Positions 36,674-64,000 of a stretch of 64,000 nucleotides of DNA are shown here, in pieces. Every line of letters begins with the position of its first letter. Within the stretch, counting starts at the first letter, position 1. Source of the DNA: Macrostomum lignano (Eukaryota). The stretch lies in NCBI GenBank assembly GCA_002269645.1, contig NIVC01002647.1, positions 89,147 through 153,146 on the forward strand. Direction: 5' to 3'. The position numbers and the translations under genes are program-made. The notes beneath the pieces are model-generated. The model was not told the origin of the DNA and searched no databases. It saw only the letters and a list, made by a program, of their open reading frames with translations.

Positions 36674-37418
36674 TGTGACAGGCCTTTTGGCTCTGTCTTT
36701 CTAAACTTCTAACTATTAGTGTTTATTAAATATCCTACGAGCTGCCACCAAAGTTGTTACAGGCCTTTCACTTCTTACTTTATCAATTTTAATCCCACCG
36801 ATTTGCCAACTACAGTTATCCTGATTATACTTGCTTTTACTCCCTAACTATTTCTTAGAATTTCATTTAAATATTTCTGGGTAGCGTTCTTAGTAGCGTT
36901 TCTGGTAGCTTATGGCTTGCTTTCTGGTAGCGTTCTAGTAGCTTATGGCCTGAGCGGTCTAGTACTGGTATATGTATTAGTGTATAGTCCTAATCGGGCG
37001 TTCACCGAGACTAGAGGGTCACGGCGCCTCTCTTGGTATATCTCCAAGAATTAGTCCCAATTCCCTTCTCTTAGCAAATTTCTTAGAATCGTTTCACAGG
37101 TTTTGCAAATAAATAAGTCGCTATTTAGCTCAAAGACTTTGAAATGGTTTAGATTGAACTGCTTATTCTGTTCGCAATTATTTGCTCACGAGTATAAGAC
37201 AGTTAGAGTATATTTGTCGCGAAACCGCTCCTATATATAGTGATTTTCCCCACATACGATTAAAACAAAAAAAATAATTCTCCAATTTATTTCGCGCATT
37301 AAAACAAACTATTATTTGGCGTTCGCGTAGATTCAGTTTCTAAGAAAGATTCGAATATACAGTTATTACATTGAAAGAACATTCGAGTATACTATGATAA
37401 AGGCATAGCACTAGTACA
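36674..37418 (-). repeat. 3' LTR of L1 (745 bp)
   Basis: Near-identical to 40950-41705. Confidence 0.95.
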
Positions 37419-40929: not shown

Positions 40930-40947
40930 TCCTTATCGCTGCCACCA
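40930..40947 (-). other. Primer-binding site of L1 (tRNA-Leu-like)
   Basis: TGGTGGCAGCG 2 nt after the 5' LTR, complementary to the recalled tRNA-Leu 3' end (..CCGCTGCCACCA). Confidence 0.8.
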
Positions 40948-40949
40948 GC

Positions 40950-41705
40950 TGTGACAGGCCTTTTGGCTCTGTCTTTCTAAACTTCTAACTATTAGTGTTT
41001 ATTAAATATCCTACGAGCTGCCACCAAAGTTGTTACAGGCCTTTCACTTCTTACTTTATCAATTTTAATCCCACCGATTTGCCAACTACAGTTATCCTGA
41101 TTATACTTGCTTTTACTCCCTAACTATTTCTTAGAATTTCATTTAAATATTTCTGGGTAGCGTTCTTAGTAGCGTTCTTAGTAGCGTTTCTGGTAGCTTA
41201 TGGCTTGCTTTCTGGTAGCGTTCTAGTAGCTTATGGCCTGAGCGGTCTAGTACTGGTATATGTATTAGTGTATAGTCCTAATCGGGCGTTCACCGAGACT
41301 AGAGGGTCACGGCGCCTCTCTTGGTATATCTCCAAGAATTAGTCCCAATTCCCTTCTCTTAGCAAATTTCTTAGAATCGTTTCACAGGTTTTGCAAATAA
41401 ATAAGTCGCTATTTAGCTCAAAGACTTTGAAATGGTTTAGATTGAACTGCTTATTCTGTTCGCAATTATTTGCTTACGAGTATAAGACAGTTAGAGTATA
41501 TTTGTCGCGAAACCGCTCCTATATATAGTGATTTTCCCCACATACGATTAAAACAAAAAAATAATTCTCCAATTTATTTCGCGCATTAAAACAAACTATT
41601 ATTTGGCGTTCGCGTAGATTCAGTTTCTAAGAAAGATTCGAATATACAGTTATTACATTGAAAGAACATTCGAGTATACTATGATAAAGGCATAGCACTA
41701 GTACA
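40950..41705 (-). repeat. 5' LTR of L1 (756 bp)
   Basis: Differs from the 3' LTR by an 11-bp tandem unit and at least one substitution. Confidence 0.95.
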
Positions 41706-41884
41706 TAAGTTAAGTTCAAAATAAACAATAATAAAACAAAATGTTAGTTTTAATTTCTTTTCTAAATAATATATTAATGTTTTGATAGAATTTTTTAAAT
41801 ATACAAATATCCCTATTAGGACAAGTGATATTTTCGTAGATAGTGTCTAGTATACTTTGAAAAGTATTAATGCACTTAGTATAT

Positions 41885-42944
41885 TGAGGTGGGGGTGGAA
41901 AAAAAGTTTTCTTGGAACGGTTGGTTTTGAAGTTTGCTGACATCAGTGAGGTAGAGTGGATTCCATGTTTGGATTGCCACTGACGTTGAGTTTGCACAAA
42001 TAAAACCGGAAAAATCGCGCAGTTGAATCTCAATGGGAAAACTTTCTCCTTTTACTCCAACTGCCAGGTTCTCAAGTCCAGGGAAAGGGTAGTCGTAATC
42101 CTAGCAGAGCGTTTGTGTAGCAGCCCAGTCGTTCAAAGCAATAAAACACCAGAGAATTTTGACACTGTAAACTAATGCGTTGAGTTGCTGAGTTTGTTAC
42201 CTTCAGTAGGGTAGTTGCTGCTACCACCATAATTTATGTATTATAGAACGAATAAGTCTCAGAGCTTTCTTTGAGATGAGAACTTTAGTTATTTTATGCC
42301 CCACGGGCAAATGACTCAATAAGATACTATGGCTTATAGATCAATGAATAAATATGGATTCAAAGTTTATTAAGTGTTGTTACTTATTTATTGATGAGCA
42401 GGCTAAAATTCTTTGATGTTATTTTTGGACAAAGATTAAATTTGCAGGCGGCACCTAGGTGCTAAATGAAATAGAAATTAGATACGCTGAGTTTTAAGGA
42501 GCCAAACAGGCAAAAAATGGCAAAAGATGGAAACAATGAAAAGAAAAAAAAGAAAAGAACAGGAAGGGATGAACATTTCATGAAAATAGAAGGGGTTTAT
42601 ATAGCAGAGAAAACAGGTCCACATATAGGAGCATCTAGTGGACAAAACATTAGACATACACAGTTTACAAATTGGGTCGCATGCAAAAACCATTGGGAGA
42701 AACGTGTTTCAACAAAACTTCCAGCACAAGGGCATGCATGTGCACTGCATGGACTAACTGTTGGAAAAACCGTCCAACATTGCCATATACAAAGTCCCAT
42801 ACAAAAGTCCCATATTGCCACATACAAAGTCCAAACCAAAGAAAATAAAATTTAATTTTTGTGCACTGCGCGGACAGTCTTAGTGGAAACAGTTTTAGTT
42901 AGTCATCAATACTTGTTCAATCAAAGTGGCATCCGCCTGTCACA
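41885..42944 (-). repeat. 3' LTR of L2 (1060 bp)
   Basis: Homologous to 61446-62455, with many transitions and a ~50-bp indel. Confidence 0.92.
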
Positions 42945-43583
42945 TGCATGAGGTGGCAGAGAGAATGATAAGAAACTCAGCAGCAGCCACCGGCCTCGGG
43001 CAGCAGAAATGCAGCCTCTGCAGTTGGCCGGGCAAGAGGCGTGGCTGGCTCCGTCAGGCTGAGTTGGTGGGTCGGGTTGCTTGTTTGTGGCTACAAGGCC
43101 AGTGCTCAAGGGCCAGCCATAAATGTGGACCTGGCTGTCCACGATGCTCAAGCATTCTAGATATTTGTCCAGGGCTGCATTCCAATATGCTTTTAAACGG
43201 GGCAGCCACCCATTCCGCAGCAGGCCTGCCTCCATATAAGCGAGGGTAAGCAGCATGGCCAGGGCTAGCCGGGCTCTAGCCGGTCCTTCATGTAGGCCCT
43301 CCTTGGCGAGGGCAAGCTGTTGATCTAGGATGGCCTTGGTGATCTCGGGTGGCATCATACCGCAGAAGAAATGCCACTGTACATCAATTTGGATTCAGCC
43401 CTTTCGGGTGGCCTGGCGCACGGCCTCTTCTATAGCTTGCTGGAGGCATACACGGGCAGGGGCTTCACCGGTGGCCGTGGCGGTAAGGGCGCGCATGGTG
43501 ATGACTTCCTCCAGGTGCAACCATGGCGCTCAGGCGAGAGTGGCGCTCATGTCAGGGGCTCGACTGCGCACAGAAGGTTCCAT
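42921..43583 (-). pseudogene. Accessory ORF of L2 in the env position, two in-frame TGA stops
   Basis: ATG at 43583 is in frame with the 43358 ORF. TGA at 43530-32 and 43395-97. TATATAAA at 43775-43768 upstream. Confidence 0.5.
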
Positions 43584-44028
43584 GGCGTTGGTCAATAGTT
43601 GGACAGAAAATAAATAAATAGAATAAATAAATAAATAGATATGTACAAAGATATTCACAGGAATAAGTCAGAGGGGTCACAGCTGCTAAATAAAAATTTG
43701 CCAATTAGGATTTACGATAATCGCAGGGAAAATTTACAGTATGCAATGAACAGAGCCACTTGGCTGCTTTATATACTTGGAAAAGCTGCCCAATCGATGA
43801 ATAAAGGAGATTCACGCGCTGGAACAAGGCACCAGTCACCGCCCCTCATGCACTCTATGGCGGACGCACATGGAGGTGGGGTGGGTGACCAATGGAGGAA
43901 TAATAAAACAGATAGCTAGCCGCGGCAGAGGGGCTAACTTAGAATGAAATGAGGCGCCTTAAACGGCTCACATAAAATGAAGAGGGCAGTTAAGAAAGGC
44001 TGGTTAATGCATAAACAATAGCTAAAAT

Positions 44029-47000
44029 GGGTCATTCCAGATAAGGACGGTCGTAACATGTCACTGTATTTGGTCATATTTTTTCTAATAGGCGAAAGTA
44101 TTTGAAACAAAAAACATGTGGTCTTGAAAGCACTTCGTATGGTCTTTCTTTTGCAAAAACAGTTGGCACAAATTGTTGTTTTATTAGGAGAATAATTAAC
44201 AAAACATTCACATCCCGGTCGTAACCAGTGAAAAACGTAGATCACGTTTTTAAAAAGTAAACTAAAAGTTTACTCAACATATTCATTGGAACCACAAGCG
44301 AGTGACAAAAATATGCTACAAAGAAATGAAACAACAGGTAAGCAATGTGATTCGCTTCTATTTTAGTACTTTTGATAGTTTAAAGTCAGTTTGTTAAAAT
44401 CCCGGTCGTAACATCCCGGTCGTAACACTTTTGTCTCCCCGCAGTCACACTCGGGAATTATCAACAAAGTGGCGGTGAGTCAAGTAATATCGTTCTTTTC
44501 TTGAAAGGTACATGTCTTATGATCGTTTGAAATGATAGTTAAACATTTGGTAAAAACTATTAAAACTTGTTTTGGACTTCAAGGTCAACGATAGCATTTT
44601 TTCAACATCTTTTATGACCTACAAAGTGACATTGAGTTTGATGGTACCCAAACACGCTAGATTTTGCATGCACTATTATAACACTGACAAATTAAATTTT
44701 CCCATTTCAGATCAGCAAAAACGTCGAAGTAAAAGCAGTAAAGTGAACACAATAAACATGGATGCAGAACCTGGAACCCAGAAAAGTAACATCCGGGTTC
44801 CAGGTTCTGCATCCATGTTTATTGTGTGGCAGTTGCTGTTGTTGCCCATCACTCAAAGTTGAATTTGAAGTGGCCACGGGCATCCAAGGGCACAGGGGGA
44901 TCCAACAGCTTCTGGATGTCAGCCAGTGGGTAGTAAATACAGTCCTTGGACTTTGGCCAGGCGTAGTTCGTGTTGCCGCTTTTCACCATCACATTCACTT
45001 TGTATTCAAACACCCCCTCAGTGTCGTCCAGCTGCCGGATCTTCACAACCTGGCCAGGGAAAACCTCGCCCTCATAGTCGACCAGGACCCACCGGCCCAC
45101 AGCTAGCTCAGCTGCGATGGGGTCAAGACTGGCACTTGGAGCCTCAGCGGACTCTTGGCTCATGCCAGTGAGCAGCCTGCCTGCTGGAACCGGAGTACTG
45201 GCAGCTGCAGGGACCCAGGAAGGCCTTGGCGGCGGAGCACTTGAGACTGGCGCTCGCACAGCAACTTCACTGTCAGTGTCCAGGCACCAGAAGTGGTCAC
45301 GCTGGATGCCCTTGACCTGTTTTAATTGAGATAAATATATATATATATTTATAGTATTTTGTTTTCTGCGTTGTACACATGTACTTTATTTCATTTTCAA
45401 AGATGGGCTGTGATTTCAATGTTCTTAGTTTTTTCTGTTTTATAAATAATTGCCGCATGCACTTAAGTTTATTTTCTTCTTGAGTGCGCCTAAGTAAAAA
45501 AATACAATTTAATCAATGCTGACATTACCGCAGGTGCATCCAGGAGCTGAGACTCGAGGCTGGAGAACTGAGCCTGGATCGTCTCGCTGGCAATGAGCAC
45601 AGTCTCAATGCTGCTGTCCTTCACAGCGTGAACGAAGTCCTGCGCGCTGTGAATGAAGAGCTGACGGGCCTTCACCTTGGTCCAGGCCAGCCGCTTCAGA
45701 ACGCCACCGACGCCGTCAATGGCGCCCTTGCCATGGAAAGTGGCAAAAAAATTCCACGTGATGCGCTTGACGCCCGGGTTCTCGGTCAGGAGGATGGCCA
45801 GCAGCTTCATCATGAAACGGTTCTTGAACTGTGAAGCTGGGCCATCACTCCAGAAGTGGACCACCTTGGGCTGCCAAGACTCACAGAACTTCTGGGAAGG
45901 AAAAGCAAGGGAGAAAGGGATGGGGATTGAGACAGAGAGACAGAGAGAGAGAGAGAATGGACTGGGACAAATGGAATTCCTGTAAAAAGTACATAACTAT
46001 GCCTTACCTGCATCAGGTGCCGCAGGAAAGTTGAAATGGCCTCCTTGGAATGATGAAGGTGGTCGCTGACGATGGCCATCATCTTGCTGCCACCTGGCCA
46101 GTAAGCAGCAACAGTGAAAAGTGTTACCTGCGCCTGATTCCAGTAGGCGCTTTGGGCCATGTCCTGCTGGGAGCACGTGTAATTCTCGCTGAAATCGAAG
46201 TGCAGCAGGAGCTCTCCGTCGGCCAGCGCGTCCTTCTGGTTGCGAAAGAAGCTGGCCTGCACCTGCTTCGTCTGGTGGTGAAGGACGAAAGCAGGCAGCT
46301 GCTCAACCAGCATCTTGAACGTGTCGGCCACGGTGAGCTGCACTGGCTGCTGCTGCACGCGGCCGTCCGCCCCGAAATCCCACTGGTGAAAGCGGACCAC
46401 GTGCTCCTTCTCCTCATCAGTTGGTGACACCAGGCGGTGGTTGTCACCTGAAGCACAGCGCTGGCATTGGCCATTGTTGCAATCCAGAGTCGCCGGGTTG
46501 CAGAGGATGAATTCGCCTACCCAGCGCGACGAGTAGGACGGCATGCCAGTGGCACCAGCCAGGGCACTGCAGAGACTGTTTTAATAGAATAATTTGAAAT
46601 GGGTGGCAGTTTGTTAAGAAGTAATATTTAAGTATATGTAACTTAGTACATCTGTCATAATTATGTCGAACTACCTTTTGAAGTTCTCGTGCAGCTTGCA
46701 GCAGCAGGCCTCCAGCGGTGTCTTGGAAAATGTCAGGATGTGACGTGGCCGCAGCTCGCAAAACTTCGACAGCGAGAGCTTGTGCTCTACATGCTCGTGG
46801 ATGAACAGGTGGTGCAGCTCCTTCATGCCGGCCACCAGGTAGCGCTTCTGGATCTGCTGACCATTGACTTTGACGTACTCCTTCCGCCCAGGAGTCCAGC
46901 GGGAAACGTCTTCGCGATCAAAAAAGGCAGCCACAGCATCGATGGTCTCGAATGGAATCCGCTCCCGGGAGATCTTCGGGGGTCAACCAGCTGCACGCCA

Positions 47001-48134
47001 AGGTTTTTGGCGAGCTGGCGAACGACTACGCGCTGGTGATCTAGTGATCTTGGCAGACCCTTCCAGGCGCTAGAGTGAAAGAAAGAAAGGGGAATGTTCT
47101 ACAAAAAACATCTAGATACACATGTCACACATTGTTACAACCTACAAACATAACTACCTAAAGGTGTCAAATTCAAATGCCAACTTACCGGTTCACAGCA
47201 CGATTGAGTGTTTTGCTGCTGCTGTAGGTGGTGCTCTCAAGTGACTCAGCCTCCTGCTGCTGCTGTTCCACCAGTTCACGCCGCCTCTGCCGCATGGCTT
47301 GCATCCGAGCTAGAGCTTGCTTCCGCTGCTTCTCAATCTTTGCAGGGTCCTTCTTCGCCTCACTCCTCCTATCCCGACTCCTCTTCTTCTCCTTCTCACG
47401 CAACTCGTCTCCCTTCCGAATCCTATAATCACGCTTGACTTCTTTTGATGGCTTTACCATAATGAATTCAAGTTAGAAAGTCACTTGGCTGTAAGAAAAA
47501 TAACACACGGTCAGTATTTTGAATGAGGGAATAAAAATCAACATGAAAAAACAAATGGTATCATTGTGTTACGACCATGTTACGACCAGGATATCCCGGT
47601 CGTAACCTAACTTTACACATAAAATAGAGTACAAAATGCATATCGAACTGTGTCAATACTTCTGTATCACACCAATATACATGTGTTTCAAATGAAAACC
47701 ATTCCCGATGTTAATTTTTTCAAAGAGACAGTCACCAAAAAAACTTTTCAACTTTCTATATCCCGGTCGTAACACATGAATTACATCACAATAAACTGTT
47801 TCATACTATCTTTCAAGCTATGTTTAAACTGCTAAAAACGTTTTTTTTTACTTTCATATACTGAAACATTAGTTATATGCCAGAAAACGACTTCTATAGT
47901 TAGTAACTATTAAATTGCAAAGCTTAAAACTTTATACCTATCAGCGTACCTATTCAGAATGTATGCATTACATAGACTTTGGAGTAGAAAAAAAGGAACA
48001 AAAATGCCATATCTTCATTAAAGTTCAATAAAAACATAAAATATAGACTCTCACTAAGCACTTTAAGCAAAGTTGGTGCTTCTACATCAGTTTTAATTTT
48101 TTTCCCATTGTGTCCTTTTCTCGTGGAATGACCC
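44029..48134 (-). mobile_element. Sola2-like DNA transposon A (4106 bp), nested in L2
   Basis: 11-bp TIR GGGTCATTCCA / TGGAATGACCC; AAT on both flanks; subterminal GGTCGTAAC repeats; encodes a transposase. Confidence 0.8.
44849..47460 (-). CDS. Spliced Sola2-like transposase (~688 aa, one 1-nt frameshift at 46978-46982)
   Basis: Exons 47460-47189, 47069-46675, 46575-46008, 45891-45529, 45316-44849, all GT-AG. Motifs HFDFSENY, WSDGPASQFKN, HGKGAIDGVGGVLKR. C-terminal Tudor-like domain. Confidence 0.78.
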
Positions 48135-48582
48135 AATAATATAAAATAGTAAGGGAGCAAAGGCAGGCTCTTTACTATTGATAATGTTAGAATAAAGTAG
48201 GTTAGCTACCGATATGGCATGCAGAGGCTCCATAGGGAGTTACAATGAAACAGGGGCTACCTTGCGCTAGGGGAAGGGAGCCAAAACTGGCAGGCCCTTG
48301 CAAAGTTCCCAGGCTCGAGCAAAATCAAACAAAGAGCATGGGTCGAGTCACCTCAAATGCCCTCCACTGAAAGACAAGGCCTGGATCCGGGGTGCTTGAC
48401 CTGAATGAAGCACAGACAAAATTGGCCCTTACACAGCGGGCTCACAAAAGCAGAAAAAAAGGGGACCTTCCGCTTTAATTGAACTAGAAGGTTTATAAAA
48501 ATTAACTGCTTTTCTCCCGAAAGCATAAGGAAAAGAGAGGATTACTTCCACACTTTGACCGTGTGCATAGAAGTTTTTAATA

Positions 48583-49900
48583 CGAGGGGTGATCAAAAAT
48601 TTCTGCAAGTGACCTCACAACTCAGTGCTACAGCAGCCGAGGCGTCTAATCGGAGTCACATTCCCTCAAAGTACTTTCCACCACTATCCATGCACTGTTG
48701 CATGCGTGCGCACCATGTCTGAAAGCAGTCATGGTACTCCGAAGTTGGTATACCCTGTAGAGCTGAATGTACCGCTTGGGCAAGGTCTTGCATGCGTGAA
48801 AGTGGCCTCCCAGAAATGACGGATTTGATCCTTGGGAACAGCCAAAAGTCGCACGATGCTAGGTCTAGAGAGTAGGGTGGATGGGGCAGCAGCCAGACCC
48901 CCTGCTGCTCCAGGTATGCCATGGTTGAGGCCACTCTGTGCGGTGCCGCATTGTCATGGTGCAGCAGGAGTCGAGGTCCATGCCTGGTTCGCACACGTTC
49001 CTGCCGCTCCTGCAGCACGCCTGGCAGAACAGTGTCTGTGTAGTACCTGGAAGTCACTGTGGCACCCGCTGGAAGGAAGTTTACCGATAGAACACCCTGA
49101 GAGTTGAAAAAATGGTGAACATCCACTTCCAACTACGGAATCCGGTCTTCAGCACCTCAGGCCTTGGCTCATCTTCTGCCAGCCAGACCATGTTGGACTG
49201 CTTATCCTTCATGGTAAAAGAAGGAGATCCAACATTCGTCTCCTGTGATGACATCCGACAGTCGTCGTGGGCCGTGGGGCTCAAACATGTGCACCTATAA
49301 GCAACAGATGTGCACCCTCTCTGCTTGCTGCTCCGGAGTGAGAAGATGGGGTACCCACCGAGCGCAGGTCTTTGTGCGGCCTAGTTGCTCATGCATGATG
49401 TTATGAGCACTTCTATAGCTGACACCAAGCTCATAGGCAAGGAATCTCAGCATAATGCTCCAATCCTCACGAATTATTGCATCGGCATGGGCCACGACAT
49501 CTTCGGTCACGGATGTCCAGGGTCGGCCAGACCTCGGTTCATCGTTGAAGCTGTCCCAGCCTTCCAAGAAATGGCGCAGCCAGCGGGCAACCATGTCAAA
49601 TGATGGAGCAGAGTCAGCTAAAACATTCACCAGATCGGTGTGAATCTCAGTCCCTTTGCAACCAAGTTGCATGCGCATAAAGATATAGAAGCGAACACTG
49701 TCTTTTGATGGTTCCATCAGCTACTGAAAACACATGGAAAATATATGTCTGTGAAATTTTACTGGAGCACATTTGGAAGCCAAAAATGCATATAAATATA
49801 GCTAACAGATATAGCCGCATATGTGTAAGTTTTTGGCTTTTCCCGATTTTATAACTAAAAGCTATAACAAAAGGTTGCAGAACTTTTTGATCAACCCTCG
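48583..49900 (-). mobile_element. Mariner (DD34D) element, 1318 bp, defective
   Basis: 26-bp TIRs CGAGGG[G/T]TGATCAAAAA[T/G]TTCTGCAA with 2 mismatches; TA TSD on both sides. Confidence 0.93.
48656..49717 (-). pseudogene. Mariner transposase pseudogene
   Basis: Motifs WVPHLL, TGDECWI, HHDNAAPH, YSLDLASCDFWLF; stop near 49295 and frameshift near 49216. Confidence 0.9.
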
Positions 49901-50039
49901 TAAATGGGGATTTGCAAAATTAGATAAAAACGCAAAGTACTATATCGCATTGATTAAATATTGATGTGTTGAATAAATATCAGTCGCATTGATTAAATGG
50001 AAATTTCACTGTACATGAGAACTGAAAGGTTCAACATTC

Positions 50040-50440
50040 TGCTTTTAGCTGGAAAGCATAAGGAAAAATACAGAATAGAACAGCAAATGAGAAAATTTGT
50101 TGCTTTTATCCCTCAAGCATAAGGAAAAGTACAAATTGGCTGCTTTTATCCCTGAAGCATAAGGAAAAATACATTGAAATAAAAATTGATGCCTGCTTTT
50201 ATCCGGAAAGCATAAGGGAAAGAGAATTGCTTTTATCCCTGAAGCATAAAGAAAAGTACATTGAAATTTAAAATTTATATATGCTTTTATCCAGAAAGCA
50301 TAAGGAAAAGAGTACCTGCTTTTATCCCTGAAGCATAAGAAAAGTACATTGAACGGAAAATTAAAATTTGATGCCGGCTTTTATTCAGAAAGCATAAGGA
50401 AAAGAGAATTGCTTTTATCCCTGAAGCATAAGGAAAAGTA
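50040..50440. repeat. Dispersed tandem motif GCTTTTATCCCTGAAGCATAAGGAAAAG (~8 copies; one more at ~48507)
   Basis: Direct reading; present on both sides of the mariner insertion. Confidence 0.8.
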
Positions 50441-50617
50441 CATTAAAGGTGAATCCAAAATTTAGTACAGATTTTCTGTCCTGGACATTTTTTTATTTAA
50501 ATTTTCACTAAAACAGTTTTTTAACAAAATTAATATATCAGAAAACTTTTTATAAAGTTTTAAGCACAAGAAATACACTGGAACAGAAATAATGCACTTT
50601 TAAATTTTTCTAAACAT

Positions 50618-50753
50618 CGATGAGTGGAACTTTGGCATTGATGAGTGGAACCTTGGTGTTGATGAGTAGAACCTTGGCATCAATGAGTGGAACCTTGGCG
50701 TTGATGAGTGGAACCTTGGTGTTGATGAGTGGAACCTTGGCGTTGATGAGTGC
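50618..50753. repeat. 21-bp repeats GATGAGTGGAACCTTGG(C/T)GTT; inverted copies at ~55065-55170
   Basis: Direct reading; they bracket transposase B. Confidence 0.8.
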
Positions 50754-51436
50754 ATATGAGATAAGAAATATACTAACCTGAATCTTTTATTTTGCTATTT
50801 CAACTTACCATATATTTTGTCATCTATTGCCATGAATAAAGAAATAAAAAACTGCACACTTAGCCTTTAAAGTCGTTTTCTTATGCTAGAGAAATGATAA
50901 CTGCACAGTGTATGAAACAATGCATATAGCATTTAAAGACAATAGTATAGGTGGATAATGTTTACTTGGCATAAGCACTAAAATGCAGTAGTTCGAAAAA
51001 ATTGACAAAATTATTGAAAATTATTTTAAATTATTTTAAATTATTAAATTATAAGAAAAAGCTAATGGCAATTGACACTAGATACAGCCCAGATCATATG
51101 GCGCTATACAATTCTTCAATGCGAGCATACTCGGTGTCTGGCAGGCAAAAAATCGGTCGGCGAACTGTGCTGACTGGCACTAACTGCGGTGGCGTCGAGC
51201 ACACAGCCAGCACAGAGCCCGCCTCGATCCACTAGGTGTCTTTTTTTCCACATGAATCTGCAAAAGGAAGCATGACAAAAATGCATTAATAGCTTGGCAG
51301 CTGCTTTAAAGTTAAAGTACGTATATATTTCTGATCCAACCTAAAAGATACCTGGCAGGACTTCCAATGTTTAAACCAAAATATATTAATCTGATATGAA
51401 TATGACAAACTTAAATCTGTTAATTTACCAATTTGG

Positions 51437-54400
51437 CTAGGTCATAGTCATGAAGGAGATGTAGATGTCCCCTTCCTTCACTTCCTTGACTTCCCCAAGG
51501 TACCAGCTGGTCTCGTATGCTACAGCAACAAAGGAGTTTATTGTTGCAGTTGGCAGCGGCAGCTCAATTATTTCGTCCAGAATGACTGCTTCTGCTGGCA
51601 CCTCATGTGTTGTTAGGTCTGGGCTCCAGGTTGTGGTGTTGAAGCAGCCTGTGCATCCAGTTGCTGTGCACTGGCAGGCCAACTGACAGTACAGGATGTC
51701 AGTGGCTTCAGTGCACTCAACATGGTGTGCTCTTAAAATGCCTACGATCGGTGGCACCGTGACATTTTGAAGGATGCTCTTCAATGTGTCAATCTTCTCA
51801 GAGGTTACCTTTAAATAGAAGAATAGAGGTTAACTAAATTGTAAGTGCGTGGGATTTTTAGCAGTTAAAAATAATTATTTTACAGGGTACTCTAGAACAA
51901 TTATTGCTGTACTTCATTTACCTGCATAAATAGGATTTTTGAATTGCGAAGACCTCCATTCATCGCAGCTTCCACATCTGTGACAGTGATAACAGACTCT
52001 CCCCAAGCCACGGCCTCATCACATTGGCGCTTAATGGCGGCGCTAACTCCGTCAGGAGCGCCCTTGCTGTGGTTGGCTTTGGTGAAAACCCACTGCCAGT
52101 TTGAGATGCCACGCGCTGCCAACTCCCGCTGAAAGAGATACACCTTGTATCTGTTGTGATACAGCAATGACGGTGAGTTGGACACAATTGTGACCCGTCT
52201 GGTCTCACAAATTGACTGGCAGTGGTCCAGGATGGGCTGCAAGTGCGCAGTGACTGCTTCGGCCACCTTTCAGCGATTGGTCGACAGAGTTGCAAATGGT
52301 GTCAGGTCTGCGCCCTAGATTATTGTAAGGTTACACCATGGCAATGTGTATCGCAATAGTATCGCAATATCGCAATAGCTTAATAGTTTTAATGATCTTG
52401 CCTTCAAGTAGCATATCCCTTGATGAATTACAACTTCTGGATTACTGCTATAGTGTGCGCTTGTTACTTCATGGCCATATTTTCCCATGTAATTCTTGGA
52501 AAAGTTGACGTGGATGACTACGTGGCCATCTTCCAGCAACAATCAAACAGCGCGGATGTACCCAAACTGATGTTTGATGCAATTGAAATGGCAGGAGTAT
52601 TTTTTAAGAGTCTGCTAAAAGGCTTCAACCACCATAGCCAGGTTGTCACATTTCTTAATTGGAAGAAAGCAAGAAGTGTTAGTACATATCTGATCACTTT
52701 GGAGTTGTCAAGCTGCTGTGATAGTCTCAAATGTACTATACTGATATCATATTTTCATTAAATACTAACTATTTTAAAAAGCACTCCAAAAGGAGTAGTC
52801 AGAATTTTACCTGAACACACTGGGTCAATTTGAAATTGTTATCATTGACCGTCAAGGCCCACTGGTGATAGGTCAGCATTTGGGATGCAGCGCTCGAAAG
52901 GTGCATAGGAATGCACTTGTCCCTGCAGGCTGCACATTCTCTTTGCAGACAAGCTGCCAAAGCAGGTGACTGGCCGGAGTCGCACAGGATCTGCTGTAGC
53001 AGCTGGTGCTTGTCGCAACTGGATATGAGGTGCTTGCTGAAGAGGGCGTCGCCCAAGAGCTATGAAAGGTGCAAGCAAGATCACTTTTAAGAATCGAAAT
53101 TGGTTCACGCCTAAGTCATCCATGCATATTAAAATATAAGGCATTTTCAGATTCCTAAAAGAAGAAATTTTAACTTACATCAAGATTGCTGCAGGTCATG
53201 CAGTGGCAAATGCCCCTGTCATTGAGCCGTGGCTTTACGACATAAAATGGTCAAATGGCATAAAATGTCGAATGGCCAATGGAAACGTTAGGATTCTCTG
53301 ATCTGAACTTCTCAAAAAGCACTTCGATTGAAAAGTTCAAGAAGCACTTCTGCATTTTGACCTTTTTCTTGGTCTTAGTCTCGTTTGTTGACGCCATCAT
53401 GCGCATATTGTTGTTGCAATTATAAAACTTGGCGACTAGCACTCTCCGACTAAGTCTTGCGTTGACAGCCAGGCTCATTTGGCCTTTGCTGACTTCATTG
53501 AGGGTTTGATAATCGAGACACAACTTCTGGACAAGGAAGCGACACGCCTTTGCTCCTTTGAGGTTTTTGCAAATCTGTTAAAAAGGTTTGTTAGTGAACA
53601 TTAAGTTAACTCAGGACACAAGAAGTAATATAAGATTTTGCTGAGGTCACAAGACAACAATTGTAAAAGACATGTAAACCATACCTTCTTAGCCAACTTG
53701 GTGATCGACTTGTTTCGTGTATGCTGGGCAAGTGCATCAAACGTTGCCTCTGCAGCTTCAGCTTGTGCATTCTGGAGTTTCAGGCAAGCACGTCGCAGCT
53801 TAGCCTGCCGAACACTAGCACTCTGCCACTTTGCCCGCCGGGTAGGCTCTTGCGGCTTTTTTGCAGAAGCTTTAGCGGTTTTCTGTAAATATTCATTTTA
53901 AACAGAGATCAAGTTCTATGTACACAACCTGATATAGAAAAAAGCACATTAAAATTAGTCTTCAAACTTACCAAATGGTATAGACACTTTCTGAGTCATT
54001 CAAATGTAGTTATAAGTTTGCTGTTTTGAATTTTCAGCATTTGCCGCTCTTCTAAGGCTCGTCGTCATTCTCAAGCAGAGGCAGCAACACTACAAGCAGA
54101 GCTTGGTGTATAGCTGCAGCTGAATGATTCTGTTGCAGATTTAGAGCCACCGATTGCAGACTTTGGACTCAAAGTAACAACTTTGTCAGCAGGCAGGACA
54201 GCAGCAGCTGGGTCAGCAGGCAGGACAGCAGCAGCTGGGTCAGCAGGCAGGACAGCAGCAGCTGGGTCAGCAGGCAATACAGCAGCTACAGCTCCTTTAG
54301 CCTCTCCGCCATCTTTTTCCGCAGGTGATCATTTTTGCAACGACTGCGAATATCACGCTGACTCATACTGCTCTTCTTTTTCTCGGCATATCGCTTTGAA

Positions 54401-54504
54401 GCAGTAGCTTGATGAGCCCTAAAGGCTTCAGGGTTTTCAGCTTTTTGCTTTGCAATAAAATGTTGATCACGTGCTTTCTTCAAATCAGGATTGATTGCAA
54501 CCAT
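51437..54504 (-). pseudogene. Degenerate spliced Sola2-like transposase B (element ends ~50450-55480, unresolved)
   Basis: Mutated motifs HVNFSKNY, VSNSPSLLYHNR, ANHSKGAPDGVSAAIKR. Tudor-like tail FVAVAYETSWYLGEV. Multiple stops. Confidence 0.72.
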
Positions 54505-55507
54505 TGCTAAAAGTGAGAATTAAAAATTTTATACCATTAGCTGGTTTTGGAAAATGAGAATAACAGATTTAAAACTAACTCAACATATAAATATTCTAGA
54601 ATCTTAATAAAGAAGAGTCCAAAGTCATAAGGCAATTTGAACATAGAACTTCAAAAGCTTTATAGAATTTTTTCTATAATTTATCATTTTTAGTATAGGC
54701 TTAAAAATAAAATTTTGCTACATTAATAATGTATTTAAAAATGTACTCTATGCCATGCCAGATGTTCTTCATTAAATACAATACTAAAACTTGTTAATCT
54801 ACTTTAAGCATAGAAACAAGTTTCTAGGACAATAAAGTCTTATCTCTAAGATTTTTAGATCATATTCTAAAAACAAATATTTTTAAATACCTAGATAATG
54901 ATAATTCTTAGCTATAAAACAATAATGCATGCTACTTGTCAACACATTAAACTTAAGGATTACTGTAAAAAAACAGTACAGTAATTTTTCTGCATGAATG
55001 CTGCTAATGCAGCTTGAAAATTCTCTATGTTTTACTCATTCAGCAATTTTTATAACTCATCAATAGCAGTGTTCCACTCATCGATGGCAGTGTTCCACTC
55101 ATCGATGGCAGTGTTCCACTCATCAAGGCCAATGTTCTACTCAACGATGCCATCAATGAGTGGAAACCTAGTGCTATTTTTTGTATCTACAAGTAATACA
55201 CAAACATATTGGGACTCAAAATTTATGAAAATATTGTCACAATACAAACATCTGTACAATATTATACTGTTGAAATTAGAAACAAAATAATATAAATGAT
55301 ATAGCTGTTCAAAAGGCGTTGATGAGTGGAAGTGTTGTGCTAACTAAAAATGGTCTAAACTAAAAAAATTCTCTAACTAAAAGAGAATTAAAATGGAAAA
55401 TTAAAATCGGCTTTCAGCACAGAGCAAGTGCAGAGAAAGCTTATAGCAAAACTAAAATTTGGAACGCATTTGCAGATTCAACTACTACTAGTAATGCACA
55501 TCAAAAG

Positions 55508-58500
55508 TTAGCAACTTGGCGCAACAGAAAATTCATTGGTAAATACCTTTTTAGACTTCGATCTCCGCGCCGATTTCAGGCAAATCTGGGTTGCCTTTGG
55601 GCAGCACTTCCAGATGGCAGAGGCTCGGCTTGAACAATTGGCTGCCACGCAGTTCAGGCTGAGCTGCGGCTGCCTGTTCTGGAGCGGGCTGATTGGCTGG
55701 GTCAATTTTGCTTTCATCGCTCGACTCGTAGGCAACATTGGCCACTCTGTCTGGCGCAGCAGCTCCTGTGGTCGATCTGCCATCATCTGCAGCACCTTGA
55801 TGATGTGATTGCGATGAACTAGCATTTCAGCTGGGCATCCACGTCAGGCTGTCATAGGCTGGATCTTGTAGGCTACTTCGCCGACCTTCCTGTTGACCTT
55901 GTACATGCTTTTGTATGGCTGGTGAAACTTCGGCAGCTCGCCCAACTCGAGCTTCGGGTTGGCCAGGCAGACCAGGTCTCCAGGCTGCAATTCCACTGGC
56001 TTGGGTCGGTTCTCGTAATATTCTTCGCAGCGTTGGATCTCAGCTTGCAATCACTGTCGCACAATCCTTTCAGTCTCGGCCAGTCTACGCTGATGCTTTG
56101 CAATGTACTCGGGGAGGTCCGGTGATACGTCCAGGTGGTCTAGGGTGTTATCGATCAGATACCGATAGGGCACTCCATAGACAATGTAATGCGGCAAGAA
56201 TCCCGTCGTACGGTTGACAGCTGATCTCAGGGCTGTCAGAGCAGCTGGCAGCATCTTGTCCCACTGTTGATGATCTTCTAGGAGATGAGTGAGCACCTTC
56301 TTGATGTTTTTGTTGCACAATTCAGCTTGACCATTGGCCCAGGGCGAATATGGCGGCGTCGTGGTTTGTCGAATGCCATAGACTTTGCAGAAATGTTGAA
56401 ACTCATGCCCTGTGAACTGTTTGCTTTGGTCCAAATAGATCCACGCTGGGATTCTAGTGATTGGGAAGACTTGTTCTTGCAGGAGAGTTATTATCGTCTT
56501 GGTGCGCTGATTCTTTATGGCAAAGCCAATGGATATTTCAACATAGTGTCGACGTAGGTTAGGATATACTTGTTACCACAGTCTGTTGGGTCTCCAATGG
56601 GGCCTAGAGTGTTGATTGCGCATCGCCCATAGATTTCGCAGACCAGAAATGATTGCACATGCGCCGCAATTTGTTGCCTTCCTTTGCTCTGAGTGCAGGT
56701 CTGGCAGGAAGCAATGTAGTCAGACACGGCCTTGGCCAGGGCCAGTCGCCAGAACCTTTCGTGCACCTTTGCAATGGTGAGGTCTCAGCCCATGTGTCTG
56801 CAGTAGGGCAAACCATGCAGGTTGGCAAACACCATGGCGTCGAGACTCTTTGGCAGGATGATCCTCGCTTTATCCTCTTTGCCCTTATTGTTGAGATGGA
56901 TGACTAATAGTCTATCATCTCGGACTTCCAATTGCTCATAGAATGCTAGGAGATTTCGCTCATCTCTTGTTAGATTTAAACGCTGATTCAGCGACAGCTT
57001 TGGTTGTTGACTTTTGATAAGGTTGATCATCATTGCAATGGCGGAGTCAGCACACTGGTGAGTCTGGAGCTCCTCACGTTATAACACTGGTCTTGGGATG
57101 TGATCAGTTAAGTTCAAGGTTTGGCGTGTGTTAGTCGAATTAGTCGGCACGGCTTCAGCTGTGGTGGCATGGTTTGGGGTCTGGAGCTCCCTCCGCATGA
57201 TCGCTACTCTGGCTGGTTGCCAGGTCATTAAAGAATTTGAAGACCAATCCTCGTTGGACATTTTGGCATCATTGTAGGCAAATTTGGATTCGTCAGCAGA
57301 GCTGTTGGTGTCGATGCTGAATCTCACTTTCTTGAACACATGACGGCGAGCGGATTGGCAGTGGTCGTCGCTGGCTGCGCTGTGGTCGCTGTCCTCGTCG
57401 CCTTTAGCTAATAGACAGTGGCTCCTTGAAGGGCAACATGTCGTGCTGCTAAAGCTGGTGGGCGACCTCTGAGTCTTGAAAACGGCTGGCCAATGGCCTC
57501 AGCTTCGTCACTGGCGGGTGCAGTGCTGTCAGCGGCTTGCTATTGGCTGTCAATGATGCTGGCAGCGTAGCCTTGCCATTGGACTCTTTCGTCTTCGTCG
57601 GCAGTTTTCGTCGATTCTGGCAGGTCAGTTGCTTTTTGCTTGGTGGAGAGCTAGGGTGGCTGCTGTTATGGACCTTCGGCGCCGCTGCGCCAGTTATTGT
57701 GGCTGGCTGCTTACTTTGGTCCTCGTCTGCTGCCTCACGCTGAGCCTCCTCCAAGCATTCAGCATCGTCCTCGGGCCGTCTCGAGAGACCGTCAGCATTC
57801 TGATGCTGACTTGACTTTCGATGCAGGATCTCGAACTCAAATTTGCTGAGGCACTGTAGCCATTATCCAAAGATTTCTTCTTGCTGAGTTCACCTTAAGA
57901 TCCAGGTTAATGCGGCATGATCGGTTCAGCAAGTGAACTTCTTAGCCAGCAGGTAGAATCGGAAGTGTTGCATCCCATCTACAACTGCCAATAGTTCTTG
58001 TTTAGTAATCAGATATCGGGCTTCGGCTGGTTTGAGTTGCCGGGAGAAATAGCCAATTGAGCACTCAACCCCATCAGCTTGGTGTTGGCTCAGGCAGGCT
58101 CCGATTCTGGTCACAGAATCATCCGTGTCCAGGATAAACATAACTTCCGGGTCCTCACTGAACTGCGGATATGCAAACACTAATGTTGAAGTCAAGGCTG
58201 CTTTGAGCTGGTCAAACGCGTCTTGCTGGGCTTTTCCCCATAAACAATTGAAATTTCGGATCTTCTTCTCCTTGATTAGATTGTAGAGCAGAGCAGCAAG
58301 TTCTGCATAGCCAGGTACAAATTTAGCATAGTAGGCACACGTGCAGACAAAACTCTTAAGTTGTTGAGCTGTTCTTGGTCTTGGCCAGGTCTGAATTGTC
58401 TCGATCTTCGCCGGGTCAGTTTTGATTCCATCCTTCATTACAATATGCCCAGGTAGTTTAGACTTGCCCAAAATAGATGGCACTTCTTGCCTTTGAACTT

Positions 58501-59960
58501 AAGATTAGCTTCTTGGACTCGCTTGAACACTTCTTCCATATGCTGTAGATGGTTATTAAATTTCTTAGAATAAACAATTACATTATCCAAATAGGCTATT
58601 GCACTTTTGTAGATGATCCTGTTAAGCACAGCGTTCATGTGGCGCATGAAGCTGGCTGGAGCTGAACTTAATCCCATAGGCATAACATTGTAGGCAAATT
58701 GTCTGCGGTGCAGCGTAGCGAAAGCAGTCAGATCTTGATCTTCTGGACGCAGTGGAATCTGATAGTAGCCGCTATTGAGGTCAAACATGCTGAATAGCTG
58801 GCTTCCTTCGAGACTGGCGAATGCTTCTTGGATGTTCGGTATCAGGTATGGAAAGTACTTGCACTTCTGATTCAGACTCCAGAAATCTTGCACAATTCGC
58901 AGGCTGCCGTCCTTCTTCGGGATGATCACCAGTGGGGTGTTGTAGCTGGAGAAGCTCGGTTGGATCACGCCTTTGGCCAGGAGATTGTTGAATAGCTGAT
59001 CCACTTTGGGCAGCAGATGCGGCGGGATCTGGCAAGTCGGCAGATGCACTGGATTCATGTCCTTTAGCACAATACTGTGGGTGACCAGATGAGTTTGGCC
59101 GAGATCGTGTGGCCCCTGAGAGAAGATAGTCTTGTACTTCTTCAATAGCTCAATGACTTGAGCATGCTGGTCACTAGACAGATCTTTACTGATGTCGATC
59201 TCCTTGATCCAAGCGTCAGGATATTCGTCTTGGATTTTATTGACAGAGTCTTCTGGCTTCAGCAGTGGAAAGAACTGTAGCTCGGGCAGTTTGATTGGTC
59301 TAGCAATCCCAACTAAGGCATTCGCACATACTTTGATTGATGTTGTTCCTTGATTAATCATCTTGATAGTGCCTTCTCTGTTAGACATAGATATTAGTGC
59401 AGGCGCGGCGTCTAGATGCTGCATATCTTCTTCGCGCCGAGCCGGTTTTAGTGGCTCGATTACAGTAGGTATACCCTGGTTTTCTTCTTGTCCTTTAGCG
59501 AGTTTAATTTTAATTCAGGTTGATGACAGTGGCAGCACAGTAGTGCTCTTAGCTGTGTAGATTCTGCACGTGGTAGCCTCAGTTCGCATGTAGCGAAGCG
59601 GTGCGGCAGTGCCATCCTTGAAAAACAGCATCCCGGCGGCAAGATCCAGTGAGGTGCTGTACTTGTCCAGAAACTTGAAGCCCAGGATGTTGTCATGCGA
59701 TCCTTTCGCTAGTAGAAACTTGACTGTTGGCTGAAAATTACCTATCTTCACTTTGATAGTTAGTTGGCCTGCCATTTGAATAGGTTCACCATTGTAGGTC
59801 ACGATATGTTGCAGGCAAGGCTCAATTTGGCCACGGAGGGTCAGGTCGTCGGTACATAGGCGGTGCCAGGTGCTGAATCCAAGGACTTCACACTTGGGCC
59901 CAGTGTCAAGTAAGAAAGCGAAATAATGACCTTGAATCTCACCAGTTAGAAACGGATCCC
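55508..59960 (-). pseudogene. Gypsy pol pseudogene of L2 (protease, RT, RNase H, integrase)
   Basis: LLDTG (~59905); FDLNSGYYQI, MPMGL, YLDNVIVYS; LDTDDS..KQELLAVV; HHCC zinc finger, INTLGP, DQSKQF, NGQAE; many stops and frameshifts. Confidence 0.92.
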
Positions 59961-59961
59961 T

Positions 59962-61374
59962 TCAAGGTTGCTTAGGTGCAGAGTTCTGTACAGGTGCGGC
60001 AGAGGCAGTCTCAGCAGTGGCCTGCTGAGCGACTAAAGTCCTTGGCGGGGACTTTAGTGCTAGTGTGGCTGCTGGATGGCGCTGCCCCTGATGGTGCATC
60101 CAGCAGTCCCATTTCCCGAGCCGCCGTTGCGCTGGGGCGCGGTGCTGGCTGACCACTGGTGCAGGCATTTGTCGGTGCAATGCTCGCGATTGCACCTGTA
60201 GCACATTGCACTTTGCCGTTGCAACTGATAGGGTGGCAGCCTTGAACCCAATTGTTGCTGCTGCGGCTGCTGCTGTTGCTGCTGTGGTCGACGTTGACCT
60301 CCTGCTGGCAGCGTTCTCGGCAGCAGGTTGCTGCCATCTCTCGGTTGCTGAAGTCAATGGTACCAAACATCTGGAGCGCTGGCCCCACGAGTCCCGTGGC
60401 TGGTGGCGAGGTTCCCATGGCTCTGGGGTGTCGTTGTTGCGCGATCCCCGTGAGTAGAATTCTCGCATTTCATTACTCAAAGTCTCTAGTAGGTGTCGTT
60501 GCTCTTGCAGTGTCTCGGCTTGTTGTTCCATGACCTCATGCAACCAGTTTTCCTCAGGCCGAGATGACTTGGTGTCGTGTTGCACCACAGTTGATGTCTG
60601 ACTATTGTCATCTTTGAGAACCCGGACGTGTCTCGCTGCTGGCAGCGGTGCTACTCGCTGAGCCAGACTAGCTGCTGTCTCCAAGCGTAGCATGGCCCTT
60701 CTTGCTGTGGTCAGATTTTGCAGTTGCACCAGGATTAGCTGCTCTCTGGCTGACTGAACAATCCACACTCCCACCATAAACTGATCCACCAGTTCTGCCT
60801 GCTTCTGAACCAGGTAAAATGCAGGAATGCTCAATCGGCCAGAGCAGTTAGTCGATCGCCATAGTTGTCCACACTCTTGTTCTTGCCTTGCTGACAGCTT
60901 CGGAACTGCTCCCAATACTCCAGTGTGTCAGCCATATGCGTAAAGCATTCAGACAATCTGTTTGAACTCACCAAACATTAGATTGTCTGGCAGCTCCATC
61001 CTGATGACTGCGGGATAGGTTGTGGCAATGTCCAAATTCACAAGGACCTCTGCCTTCTTGCGTCTATCGTCTGTGATCCCATTGAGCTTGCAACACTCTT
61101 CCAGAGCCTGGATCCTAACATTGAATTCCTGGTTCTGCGTGTACCGCTGAATCTTGACTGGTTTTGGTGCCAGAGCTCAATCCTGCTGCTGGGGCTGCTG
61201 GTATACATGATGATAGTGTTGCGGCTAGCCTAGGCTAGTCTGCTCCAGTTGCCAGCGCACCTCTTCGGTCATCATGCAAATCATCTCGTTGTAGGTCAGT
61301 CTAGTAGTTGAGTTGTTGGGGCCCGCGGCATTGGCTGTCGCGTCTGTGGCTGTTGAATTAGTAGTTGAAGCCAT
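59962..61374 (-). pseudogene. Gypsy gag pseudogene of L2
   Basis: ATG at 61374 after the PBS. VKIQRYTQNQEFNVRIQALEECCKLNGIT resembles the L1 gag. Zinc knuckle CYRCNREH..KC near 60200. Stops and frameshifts. Confidence 0.75.
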
Positions 61375-61422: not shown

Positions 61423-61444
61423 TATCCCACTTAGCTGACCACCA
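61423..61444 (-). other. Primer-binding site of L2 (tRNA-Leu-like, imperfect)
   Basis: TGGTGGTCAGCTAAGTGGGAT 1 nt after the 5' LTR, versus the recalled Leu PBS TGGTGTCAGAAGTGGGAT. Confidence 0.65.
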
Positions 61445-61445
61445 G

Positions 61446-62455
61446 TGAGGTGGGGGTGGAAAAAAGTTTTCTTGGAATGGTTGGTTTTGAAGTTTGCTGA
61501 CACCAGTGAGGTGGGGCAGATTCCATGTTTGGATTGCTGCTGATGTCGAGTTCGCATGAATAAAACCGGAAAAATCGCGCAGTTGAATCTCAATGGGAAA
61601 ACTTTCTCCTTTTACTCCAACTGCCAGGTTCTCAAGTCCAGGGGAAGGGTAGTCGTAATCCTAGCAGAGCGGTTGTGTAGCGGCGCGGCATTCAAAGCAA
61701 TAAAACACCAGAGAATTTTGACACTGTAAACTAATGCGTTGAGTTGCTGAGTTTGTTACCTTCAGTAGGGTAGTTGCTGCCACCACCGTAATTTATGTAT
61801 TATGGAACGAATAAGTCTCAGAGCTTTCTTTGAGATGAGAACTTTAGTTATTTTATGCCCCACGGGCAAATGACTCAATAAGATACTATGGCTTATAGAT
61901 CAATGAATAAATATGGATTCAAAGTTTATTAAGTGTTGTTACTTATTTATTGATGAGCAGGCTAAAATTTTTTAATGTTATTTTTGGACAAAGATTAAAT
62001 TTGCAGGCGGCACCTAGGTGCTAAATGAAATAGAAATTAGATACGCTGAGTTTTAAGGAGCCAAACAGGCAAAAATAGCAAAAGATGGAAACAATGAAAA
62101 GAAAAAAAGAAAAGAACAGGAAGGGATGAACATTTCATGAAAATAGAAGGGGTTTATATAGCAGAGAAAACAGGTCCACATATAGGAGCATCTAGTGGAC
62201 AAAACGTTGAACATACATGGTTCACAAATTGGGTTGCATGCAAAAACCGTTGGGAGAAATGCATTTCAACAAAACTTCCAGCATGAGGGCACGCATGTGC
62301 ACTGCATGGACTAACTGTTGGAAAAACCTGTTGGACGAAGTCCAAACCAAGGAAAATAAAATTTAATTTTTGTACACCACGCAGACAGTCTTAGTGGAAA
62401 CAGTTTTAGTTAGTCATCGATACTTGTTCAATCAAAGTGGCATCCGCCTGCCACA
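61446..62455 (-). repeat. 5' LTR of L2 (1010 bp)
   Basis: Adjacent to PBS and gag; TSD ATAT follows. Confidence 0.92.
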
Positions 62456-64000
62456 ATATACACCTCTAATGCAACAAGGCATGCCAGAGGTCTAAGGGAC
62501 AGTGCACTAGAGGGGCTAAGGGGTGGTTTGCCAGAAGGGCTAAGAGGCCATAATTCAAAAGGTGATATGTATTTTGGGATTTCTTGGTATACAACAAGGT
62601 AAAGGGTCTTACCATTTTTCAGCATATATCAAGGCATACCATGTACATAATATAATAAATACAGTACATGGTGTCAAATGACATTTTTTGTATTTGCATA
62701 TAAACCCAACATGCAAACAAGGTCTTGTCATTTTTTCTAGTATTAAACCTGGTATATACTAATACACAATCCAAACTATGGCTAAAAGGTAGGATGCCAA
62801 TGGATAGCACACCAAAGGGGTAGTGCATACTTGAAAGATGGCACATAGAAGTGTAGCTTACTTGTGCTATTCTTCTGGCTATACCAAATTGCCAAAGGCT
62901 TTTAACACCTATGTAGCATTAAGAAGATTGCCAATATATCATAGCAGTTTTAGTTCAAGAAACATTTTTATAATAGATAGTCTATAAACCCCTAGGCCAA
63001 AGTGAGGAGGCATGCAAAGTTATGCTTTTTCTGCAAATTTTTGCTTAGTGAAAAATATAAAACTACTTATTAGCTGAATAATAAAACTTATAAGACAATA
63101 AGGTAGACAGCTTAGGCAAGTTGGTCAAAGTTAATTCTATCATTTATTTAATATAATTTGCGTATTGTCCCCTAGATTGGCATTGTTTCACATGCAAAGT
63201 ATGTTATTCTTGGCGTGCATCTATGGACTTGGAGAATTTATTCCAATAGGGCAAAATAAAAATGTTAATAAAATAGACCAAATTTCAAAGTGATACTATG
63301 AAAACTATTACTTAATTGACAATTTAGTAAATATTCCATTTTTTGCCAAAGGCAAAGCCCTATTGCAGCCAAGGTTTAATGGCCATTGGCTGGAATAGAG
63401 ACAAAGTGCCAAGTGATAAAGTGATAAAACATTAAACATTAAAACATCATTAATTACCTTAACAAAACATAAGTAAATTTTTATAAATATACACTTAATG
63501 CCCCATATACAATACACATTTGGTAACAAAAAGGCTATTACCAAAATGGATGACCCCAAAGTGACTATCAATGAAATAACTGGTCCCCCTTAAAGCATAA
63601 GATTATAGATTGTCGAAGTCACTTGCTGGACCTCTTGGCTGCTATACCTCTATATTCTCCCTTGCTTCCATAGTCCTCTAGATGCAGAAACTGGATATGG
63701 AAACTGTGGGGTTCAAAAACCTTAATATCTATAACTTCCCATAGTCATATCCATAGCTATAGTGAAACTCCAATAGTGTTATGATTACATTTTTGTGTAT
63801 ACTACTGTACCAACAAACCATTTTTAGTAAATTGGATTCTTTAAAAACATATATAAATGATATCTTACCCAAAATCAATAACAAATGTTAGTAAGTGAAA
63901 AAAGGTAAATTAGTGAGTAAACAGCCGTTTCCATGTGCATATTTTTACTTGTTAGTTTCTGATTATAGACCTAATAATATTATAGGAAATTATAAGAAAA

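Follow-up and report, generated by a model that had tools for sequence, protein, structure and literature searches.

A repeated LTR end and tRNA-Leu primer-binding site inside Macrostomum lignano LTRs is probably a unit of a variable U5 array

Is a second copy of the LTR end and primer-binding site (PBS), lying inside an LTR, a working part of the retrotransposon that carries it? The question arises from the 64,000-nucleotide stretch of Macrostomum lignano DNA analyzed here (the window), which holds the elements L1 and L2, both with such an inner copy. The sequence-only reading had taken it for a lineage-level design, a "double-PBS LTR". L2 is a minus-strand element with direct LTRs of the TG...CA type and a 4-bp target-site duplication (TSD), ATAT. 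It is composed of the following parts.

61446..62455, minus strand: 5′ LTR, TG...CA, with the TSD ATAT at 62456-62459
41885..42944, minus strand: 3′ LTR, 90.7% identical to the 5′ LTR, with the TSD ATAT at 41881-41884
61446..61458, minus strand: outer LTR end, the integration end, at which most 3′ and solo LTR copies end
61424..61444, minus strand: outer, primed PBS, a bulged 21-nt tRNA-Leu complement that is an exact tRNA-Leu(AAG/TAG) complement in a minority of copies
60616..61374, minus strand: broken gag region, homologous to the gag of L1 and of sister families
55793..59511, minus strand: pol remnants in several frames, in the order RT, RNase H, integrase

The pol remnants match Pfam RVT_1, RT_RNaseH and rve in Ty3/Gypsy order, with rve slightly below the cut-off, and the best PDB match of the RT is that of Ty3 (E 1e-33). 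By its pol order, Ty3-like RT, LTRs with TSD and tRNA-Leu PBS, L2 is a Ty3/Gypsy LTR retrotransposon. Its closest named RT relatives are M. lignano proteins, and motifs of the published M. lignano family set are present in this genome. No polypurine tract precedes the 3′ LTR in L2-lineage copies, which have a C/G-rich stretch there instead; a purine tract is present at this place in the sister families F, G and H. The C/G-rich stretch (window 42945-42960, and also in L181, L185 and L261) resembles the inner LTR end, and the start of the L2-lineage LTR resembles the PBS. Some 12 kb of the L2 interior (43000-55400) is mostly foreign to intact relatives, and a near-identical L2 locus on C89 has a shorter interior. 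At three other loci (L177, L252, L255) the LTR, PBS and leader are repeated about 8-9 kb apart, possibly as tandem elements with a common LTR. The window also contains long satellite arrays with 21-, 23-, 29- and 46-nt units (1-1916, 8746-13277, 15083-19578 and 20924-22113).

The inner copy comprises about 13 nt of LTR end and 10 nt of PBS, repeated 61 nt inward.

61507..61519, minus strand: inner LTR-end copy in the L2 5′ LTR
61496..61505, minus strand: inner PBS remnant of 10 nt, without the T-arm complement
61459..61495, minus strand: unit spacer, the least conserved part (mean column identity 0.69)
41935..41958, minus strand: decayed inner copy of end and PBS in the L2 3′ LTR

The coordinates reported earlier are correct: on the plus strand the LTR end begins at 61446 and the inner TGAGG at 61507 lies 61 nt inside, with the decayed counterpart present, as claimed, at 41947 in the other LTR. 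When the 22-nt junction was compared with the adjoining LTR of the window L2 it scored 19, a value reached by 0 of 5000 dinucleotide shuffles (maximum, 14). The inner site was seen in all 30 aligned L2-like loci, which were chosen for similarity to the window. In L2 these sites lie downstream of AATAAA candidates; RNA contigs of four runs showed no visible transcript starts or ends on family F. In L2 the inner PBS is identical to the opening 10 nt of the outer PBS that is commonest in the lineage, and the duplex computed for it has about half the strength of the outer one (-13.7/-14.4 against -28.2/-24.7 kcal/mol). Across 19 dereplicated L2 LTRs, conservation was 0.89 for the inner block, with a TGGTG core at 0.95, and 0.82 for upstream U5. 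This does not amount to extra conservation of the block, as 91 of 332 windows reach its score. The inner copy in L2 has probably decayed into a relic that the element can do without.

We then considered which tRNA primes these elements. The host genome carries genes for tRNA-Leu(AAG/TAG) and tRNA-Leu(CAG). Compared with the host tRNA set, each of the two L2 sites complements a tRNA-Leu 3′ end, and the inner one matches tRNA-Leu(CAG) over 9 nt. This bears out the earlier remark that the inner PBS is the better 9-nt match, as far as the match itself goes; a PBS copied from that isoacceptor was found in 0 of 82 L2-lineage outer PBS rows. By hand count, these rows fall into two bulged types (48 and 23), variants (5) and a Leu(AAG/TAG) type (6, of which one comes from another family and two are probable alleles with one change). 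Similarly, the outer PBS of L1 is an exact Leu(AAG/TAG) complement in 9 of 30 copies. Searched with the Leu PBS pattern, the genome yielded 732 matches; among the first 100 listed, 96 were exact Leu(AAG/TAG) complements and none was of the Leu(CAG) type. Since tRNA-copied daughter PBSs name the real primer, L1 and L2 would share a single type of primer, which according to the copies is tRNA-Leu(AAG/TAG) rather than tRNA-Leu(CAG). The two elements had been said to use different PBSs; the sequences do differ, but the tRNA-copied variants of both correspond to tRNA-Leu(AAG/TAG). Judged from these integrated copies, the tRNA-copied PBS appears to be inherited far less than half the time in both the L2 lineage and L1.

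Could the inner site of L2 nevertheless function as a second site for priming by tRNA-Leu(CAG)? Besides the 9-nt match, the commonest L2-lineage outer PBS pairs slightly better in silico with this tRNA than with Leu(AAG/TAG) (-29.8 against -26.1). We consider it very improbable all the same, given that exact Leu(CAG) complements are missing from the outer rows and that five of the L2-lineage rows are of the Leu(AAG/TAG) type. Use of the inner end should also leave LTRs that stop there, and against 151 intact inner sites we found three matches with another continuation, none of them an inner-ended L2 LTR with a TSD. One (L131) is unrelated, one (L132) has a small insertion, and the lone candidate, L130/L259, ends there without a TSD. 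About every second end of this kind is picked up by the comparison, with which a rate of a few percent is compatible.

Next, we asked how far the trait extends. Close PBS pairs, spaced 59-86 nt apart, numbered 12 among the first 100 of the 732 matches listed. Reading 30 Leu-PBS loci and additional elements revealed arrays of one to several units, each an LTR end, a tRNA-Leu PBS and a spacer, in families F, G, H, I, K and M, whose LTRs are mutually unalignable. When the trait was mapped on an RT tree, the L2 lineage, K (a relative of L1), M, F, G, H and J formed one clade with 99/99 support; family J, within it, is single-unit. Two published families of other clusters (id38 and id115) and two other Leu-PBS families have no inner copy, with scores of 5-6 as against 18-19. 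Of the published families only id38 is in the tree, where its RT is 39-40% identical to the clade without a supported join; an RT match was not found in the Mag family id115. The published M. lignano set comprises 137 families, including a Gmr1/Osvaldo cluster, according to the available part of PMC12801592, and the unit motif had no match in the partial sequence lines of six of the 137 in its supplement. A control search with the guessed PBS of another tRNA gave no matches and was not used. The sequence-only reading was thus right to see a lineage-level trait and not an accident, since the unit recurs in families with unalignable LTRs that all belong to one RT clade. A further family (L276, L302, L292, L303) has an exact tRNA-Leu PBS and the upstream 10-mer described below, with no RT match in 20 kb and nearby frames that look ankyrin-like by eye.

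The second element of the window belongs to the same picture.

40950..41705, minus strand: L1 5′ LTR, with its partner at 36674-37418 and the TSD CTTA
41017-41026, minus strand: L1 inner PBS 10-mer
40938-40947, minus strand: L1 outer PBS 10-mer

L1 (36674-41705) is young, with an LTR identity of 98%, and retains a gag remnant and no pol match; RT-bearing relatives exist (L279). A T-arm-like motif in L1, considered as part of a bipartite PBS, was rejected when relatives showed it to be a decayed further unit. Because the gag regions of L1 and L2 are homologous and the trait runs through one RT clade, the double-site layout is inherited, and the two elements are relatives that share it by descent and not independent cases.

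The number of units is not fixed. Of 52 family-F 5′ LTRs, 32 are without an inner unit, 13 carry one and seven carry two; these LTRs were chosen by leader sequence from 70 matches, with four retrieved rows skipped, and they include allelic near-copies, so that rows are not independent. The unit is also missing from 10 of 35 rows of the L2-lineage tree, which are scattered over it (8 changes, against a shuffled mean of 8.8). Four long-branch rows with broken internal sequence are unsure, and L186 was excluded as another family. Unit-less young L2 subfamilies include copies whose LTRs are 99.6% identical. The proposed "double-PBS design" is therefore not borne out, with a variable unit number in F, young L2 subfamilies without the unit and no extra conservation.

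How, then, do units come and go? In family F the PBS is an exact tRNA complement at 23 of 27 inner sites and at 15 of 52 outer sites, the outer ones being mostly bulged. The same LTR-end types serve as outer ends in single-unit copies and as inner ends in multi-unit copies, and two mosaics of the L2 lineage (L184 and L191) join a single-unit-type end to a unit. Moreover, one family-G element with the TSD GTTA has one inner unit in its 5′ LTR and two in its 3′ LTR. Among 22 family-F elements that carry an inner unit and whose 3′ end is resolved, two have a 3′ LTR that stops exactly at the inner end, with TSDs TAAT and ATTA and LTR identities of 99.9-100%; one of the two (L138) had been pre-selected for two exact PBSs.

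Our main reading, to which we give a probability of about 60%, is that the U5 of a Ty3/Gypsy clade holds a tandem array of variable unit number, to which the inner site belongs as one unit, and that units are gained, swapped and lost when plus-strand strong-stop DNA anneals out of register. The plus strand would end in an 18-nt copy of the primer tRNA and could anneal to an inner PBS of a minus strand made from unit-bearing RNA. This would leave the old LTR end and a fresh, exact PBS within the LTR, with the captured spacer and end coming after them. The annealing partner might be any PBS on the minus strand, from the same or a co-packaged RNA, and units would be added, swapped or dropped depending on the choice. 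A fresh inner unit could itself act as primer site and integration end, and units that are not used would decay, as in L2. The mis-annealing step, deduced from integrated copies, is likely. We favor an origin in reverse transcription because the inner PBSs are exact, end types interchange and very young LTR pairs differ by one unit. Priming at inner sites is likely but unproven, because the two inner-ended F elements could also have arisen by post-integration deletion between short copies of the end (shared suffixes of 7 and 4 nt) or, with no priming at the inner site, from a mixed dimer of RNAs.

Another account would be ordinary tandem duplication in U5, followed by unequal recombination or slippage in integrated DNA; the PBS would merely be part of the repeat and inner sites would never be used. 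LTRs commonly hold tandem repeats. Adjacent units are near-identical in L139, L141, L227 and L233, and the short shared suffixes might guide deletions. This account leaves unexplained why inner PBSs are exact when most outer PBSs of F are bulged, why the junction of end and PBS forms the border of the units, and why LTR pairs that are 99.9-100% identical are asymmetric. We regard it as quite unlikely.

We also considered that selection maintains the inner unit as an RNA element, acting as a decoy or switch that binds tRNA, 3′ tRNA fragments or the anti-PBS strand and thereby frees the real PBS. Indeed, the inner PBS and spacer form a predicted hairpin in families F, G, H and I (z -1.4 to -2.7) that the outer PBS and leader do not form, and this may be a sign that the unit is under selection. 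In F, exact outer PBSs occur in 11 of 20 copies with inner units and in 4 of 32 without, and a spacer motif is common to families with unalignable LTRs. The idea that PBSs trade priming against silencing by tRNA fragments (tRFs) is argued in the accessible portion of PMC7472051. Despite this, the unit is missing in 32 of 52 family-F copies and in many young L2 copies, the L2 and L1 units are without the hairpin (z +0.6 and +0.8), single-family z-scores are weak and the L2 inner block lacks extra conservation. An anti-PBS hairpin as the function of the L2 inner site was rejected, there being no such hairpin in L2. Selection for a decoy or switch is unlikely in our view.

A further tRNA complement, missed earlier, lies much deeper in the LTR.

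61776..61785, minus strand: far-upstream exact 10-nt complement of the tRNA-Leu(AAG/TAG) 3′ end, conserved across the clade
42217..42226, minus strand: decayed copy of this 10-mer in the L2 3′ LTR

It sits about 340 nt inside the window L2 LTR and 90-360 nt inside the LTR across the clade. Of 45 L2-lineage rows, duplicates counted, 42 retain the 10-mer, and most sister families have it too, with or without inner units. Its 9-nt core had no match in 50.3 kb of internal sequence. M, L141 and the L1 of the window do not have it as a separate site, and the window copy has no hairpin beyond shuffles (z -0.4). Being more constant, the 10-mer appears to be a better candidate for a selected design feature than the flagged duplication. 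A bolder and rather unlikely proposal is that the clade has a multi-site tRNA system in U5: a 10-nt tRNA-Leu docking hairpin 90-360 nt inside the LTR, together with renewable spare cassettes of integration end and PBS that prime, integrate, swap between families and decoy tRNA fragments while the working PBS stays bulged. If true, this would be a natural, self-renewing multi-PBS LTR, so far undescribed.

The inner unit is a genuine feature that extends through the clade and seems not to have been described before; it is a variation on ordinary LTR biology. The sequence-only reading knew of no description, and we likewise found no natural arrays of LTR end and PBS in the literature searched, with subscription papers mostly outside it and Repbase and GyDB not covered. 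The available parts of PMC3601003 and PMC3212995 contain no such arrays, and that of PMC12801592 has no mention of PBS or tRNA. Because the copies probably record strand-transfer errors, the frequency of out-of-register plus-strand jumps, the survival of mismatched PBSs and the growth of U5 become questions that can be put to genomes alone. In such families, boundaries may be wrongly placed by LTR finders and in dating by LTR pairs. The conserved upstream tRNA complement offers a defined site at which possible regulation by tRNA or tRFs could be studied in a model flatworm.

Self-priming of the Tf1 type, in which the RNA 5′ end is complementary to the PBS and no tRNA primer is used, was rejected as a parallel: the repeat here is a direct one, and the outer site has exact tRNA complements, the mark of copying from a tRNA. 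Closer is the situation in the mouse ERVs ETn, MusD and IAP, where mismatched PBSs revert to the tRNA copy, as described in the available text of PMC7472051. As there, the common PBS in M. lignano is mismatched and a minority is exact through plus-strand copying; unlike there, the whole module of end and PBS is repeated in U5, in variable number, and inner copies are exact more often than outer ones. Drosophila gypsy and yeast Ty3 have a second or bipartite PBS near the RNA 3′ end that pairs with the anticodon/T-stem region (PMC1635307, in the part available). They resemble our case in having a second tRNA-complementary site in the element RNA, whereas the extra sites in M. lignano repeat the acceptor-end complement beside the 5′ PBS, along with a copy of the integration end. 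In HIV-1 proviruses, aberrant second-strand transfer leaves tRNA-derived sequence at junctions (PMC12657518, likewise in part). Mis-targeted plus-strand transfer and tRNA-derived junction sequence would be common to both, but the HIV-1 products are defective deletions, and those in M. lignano appear to have replicated further because units are in both LTRs. Voronin and Pathak (2004) reportedly engineered retroviral vectors with two PBSs on the same RNA, each of which initiates reverse transcription. In contrast to such vectors, the M. lignano arrays are natural and heritable, and the integration end is part of them; they are a case from nature of LTRs in which complete priming and integration ends occur several times, a layout otherwise familiar to us from engineered vectors only.
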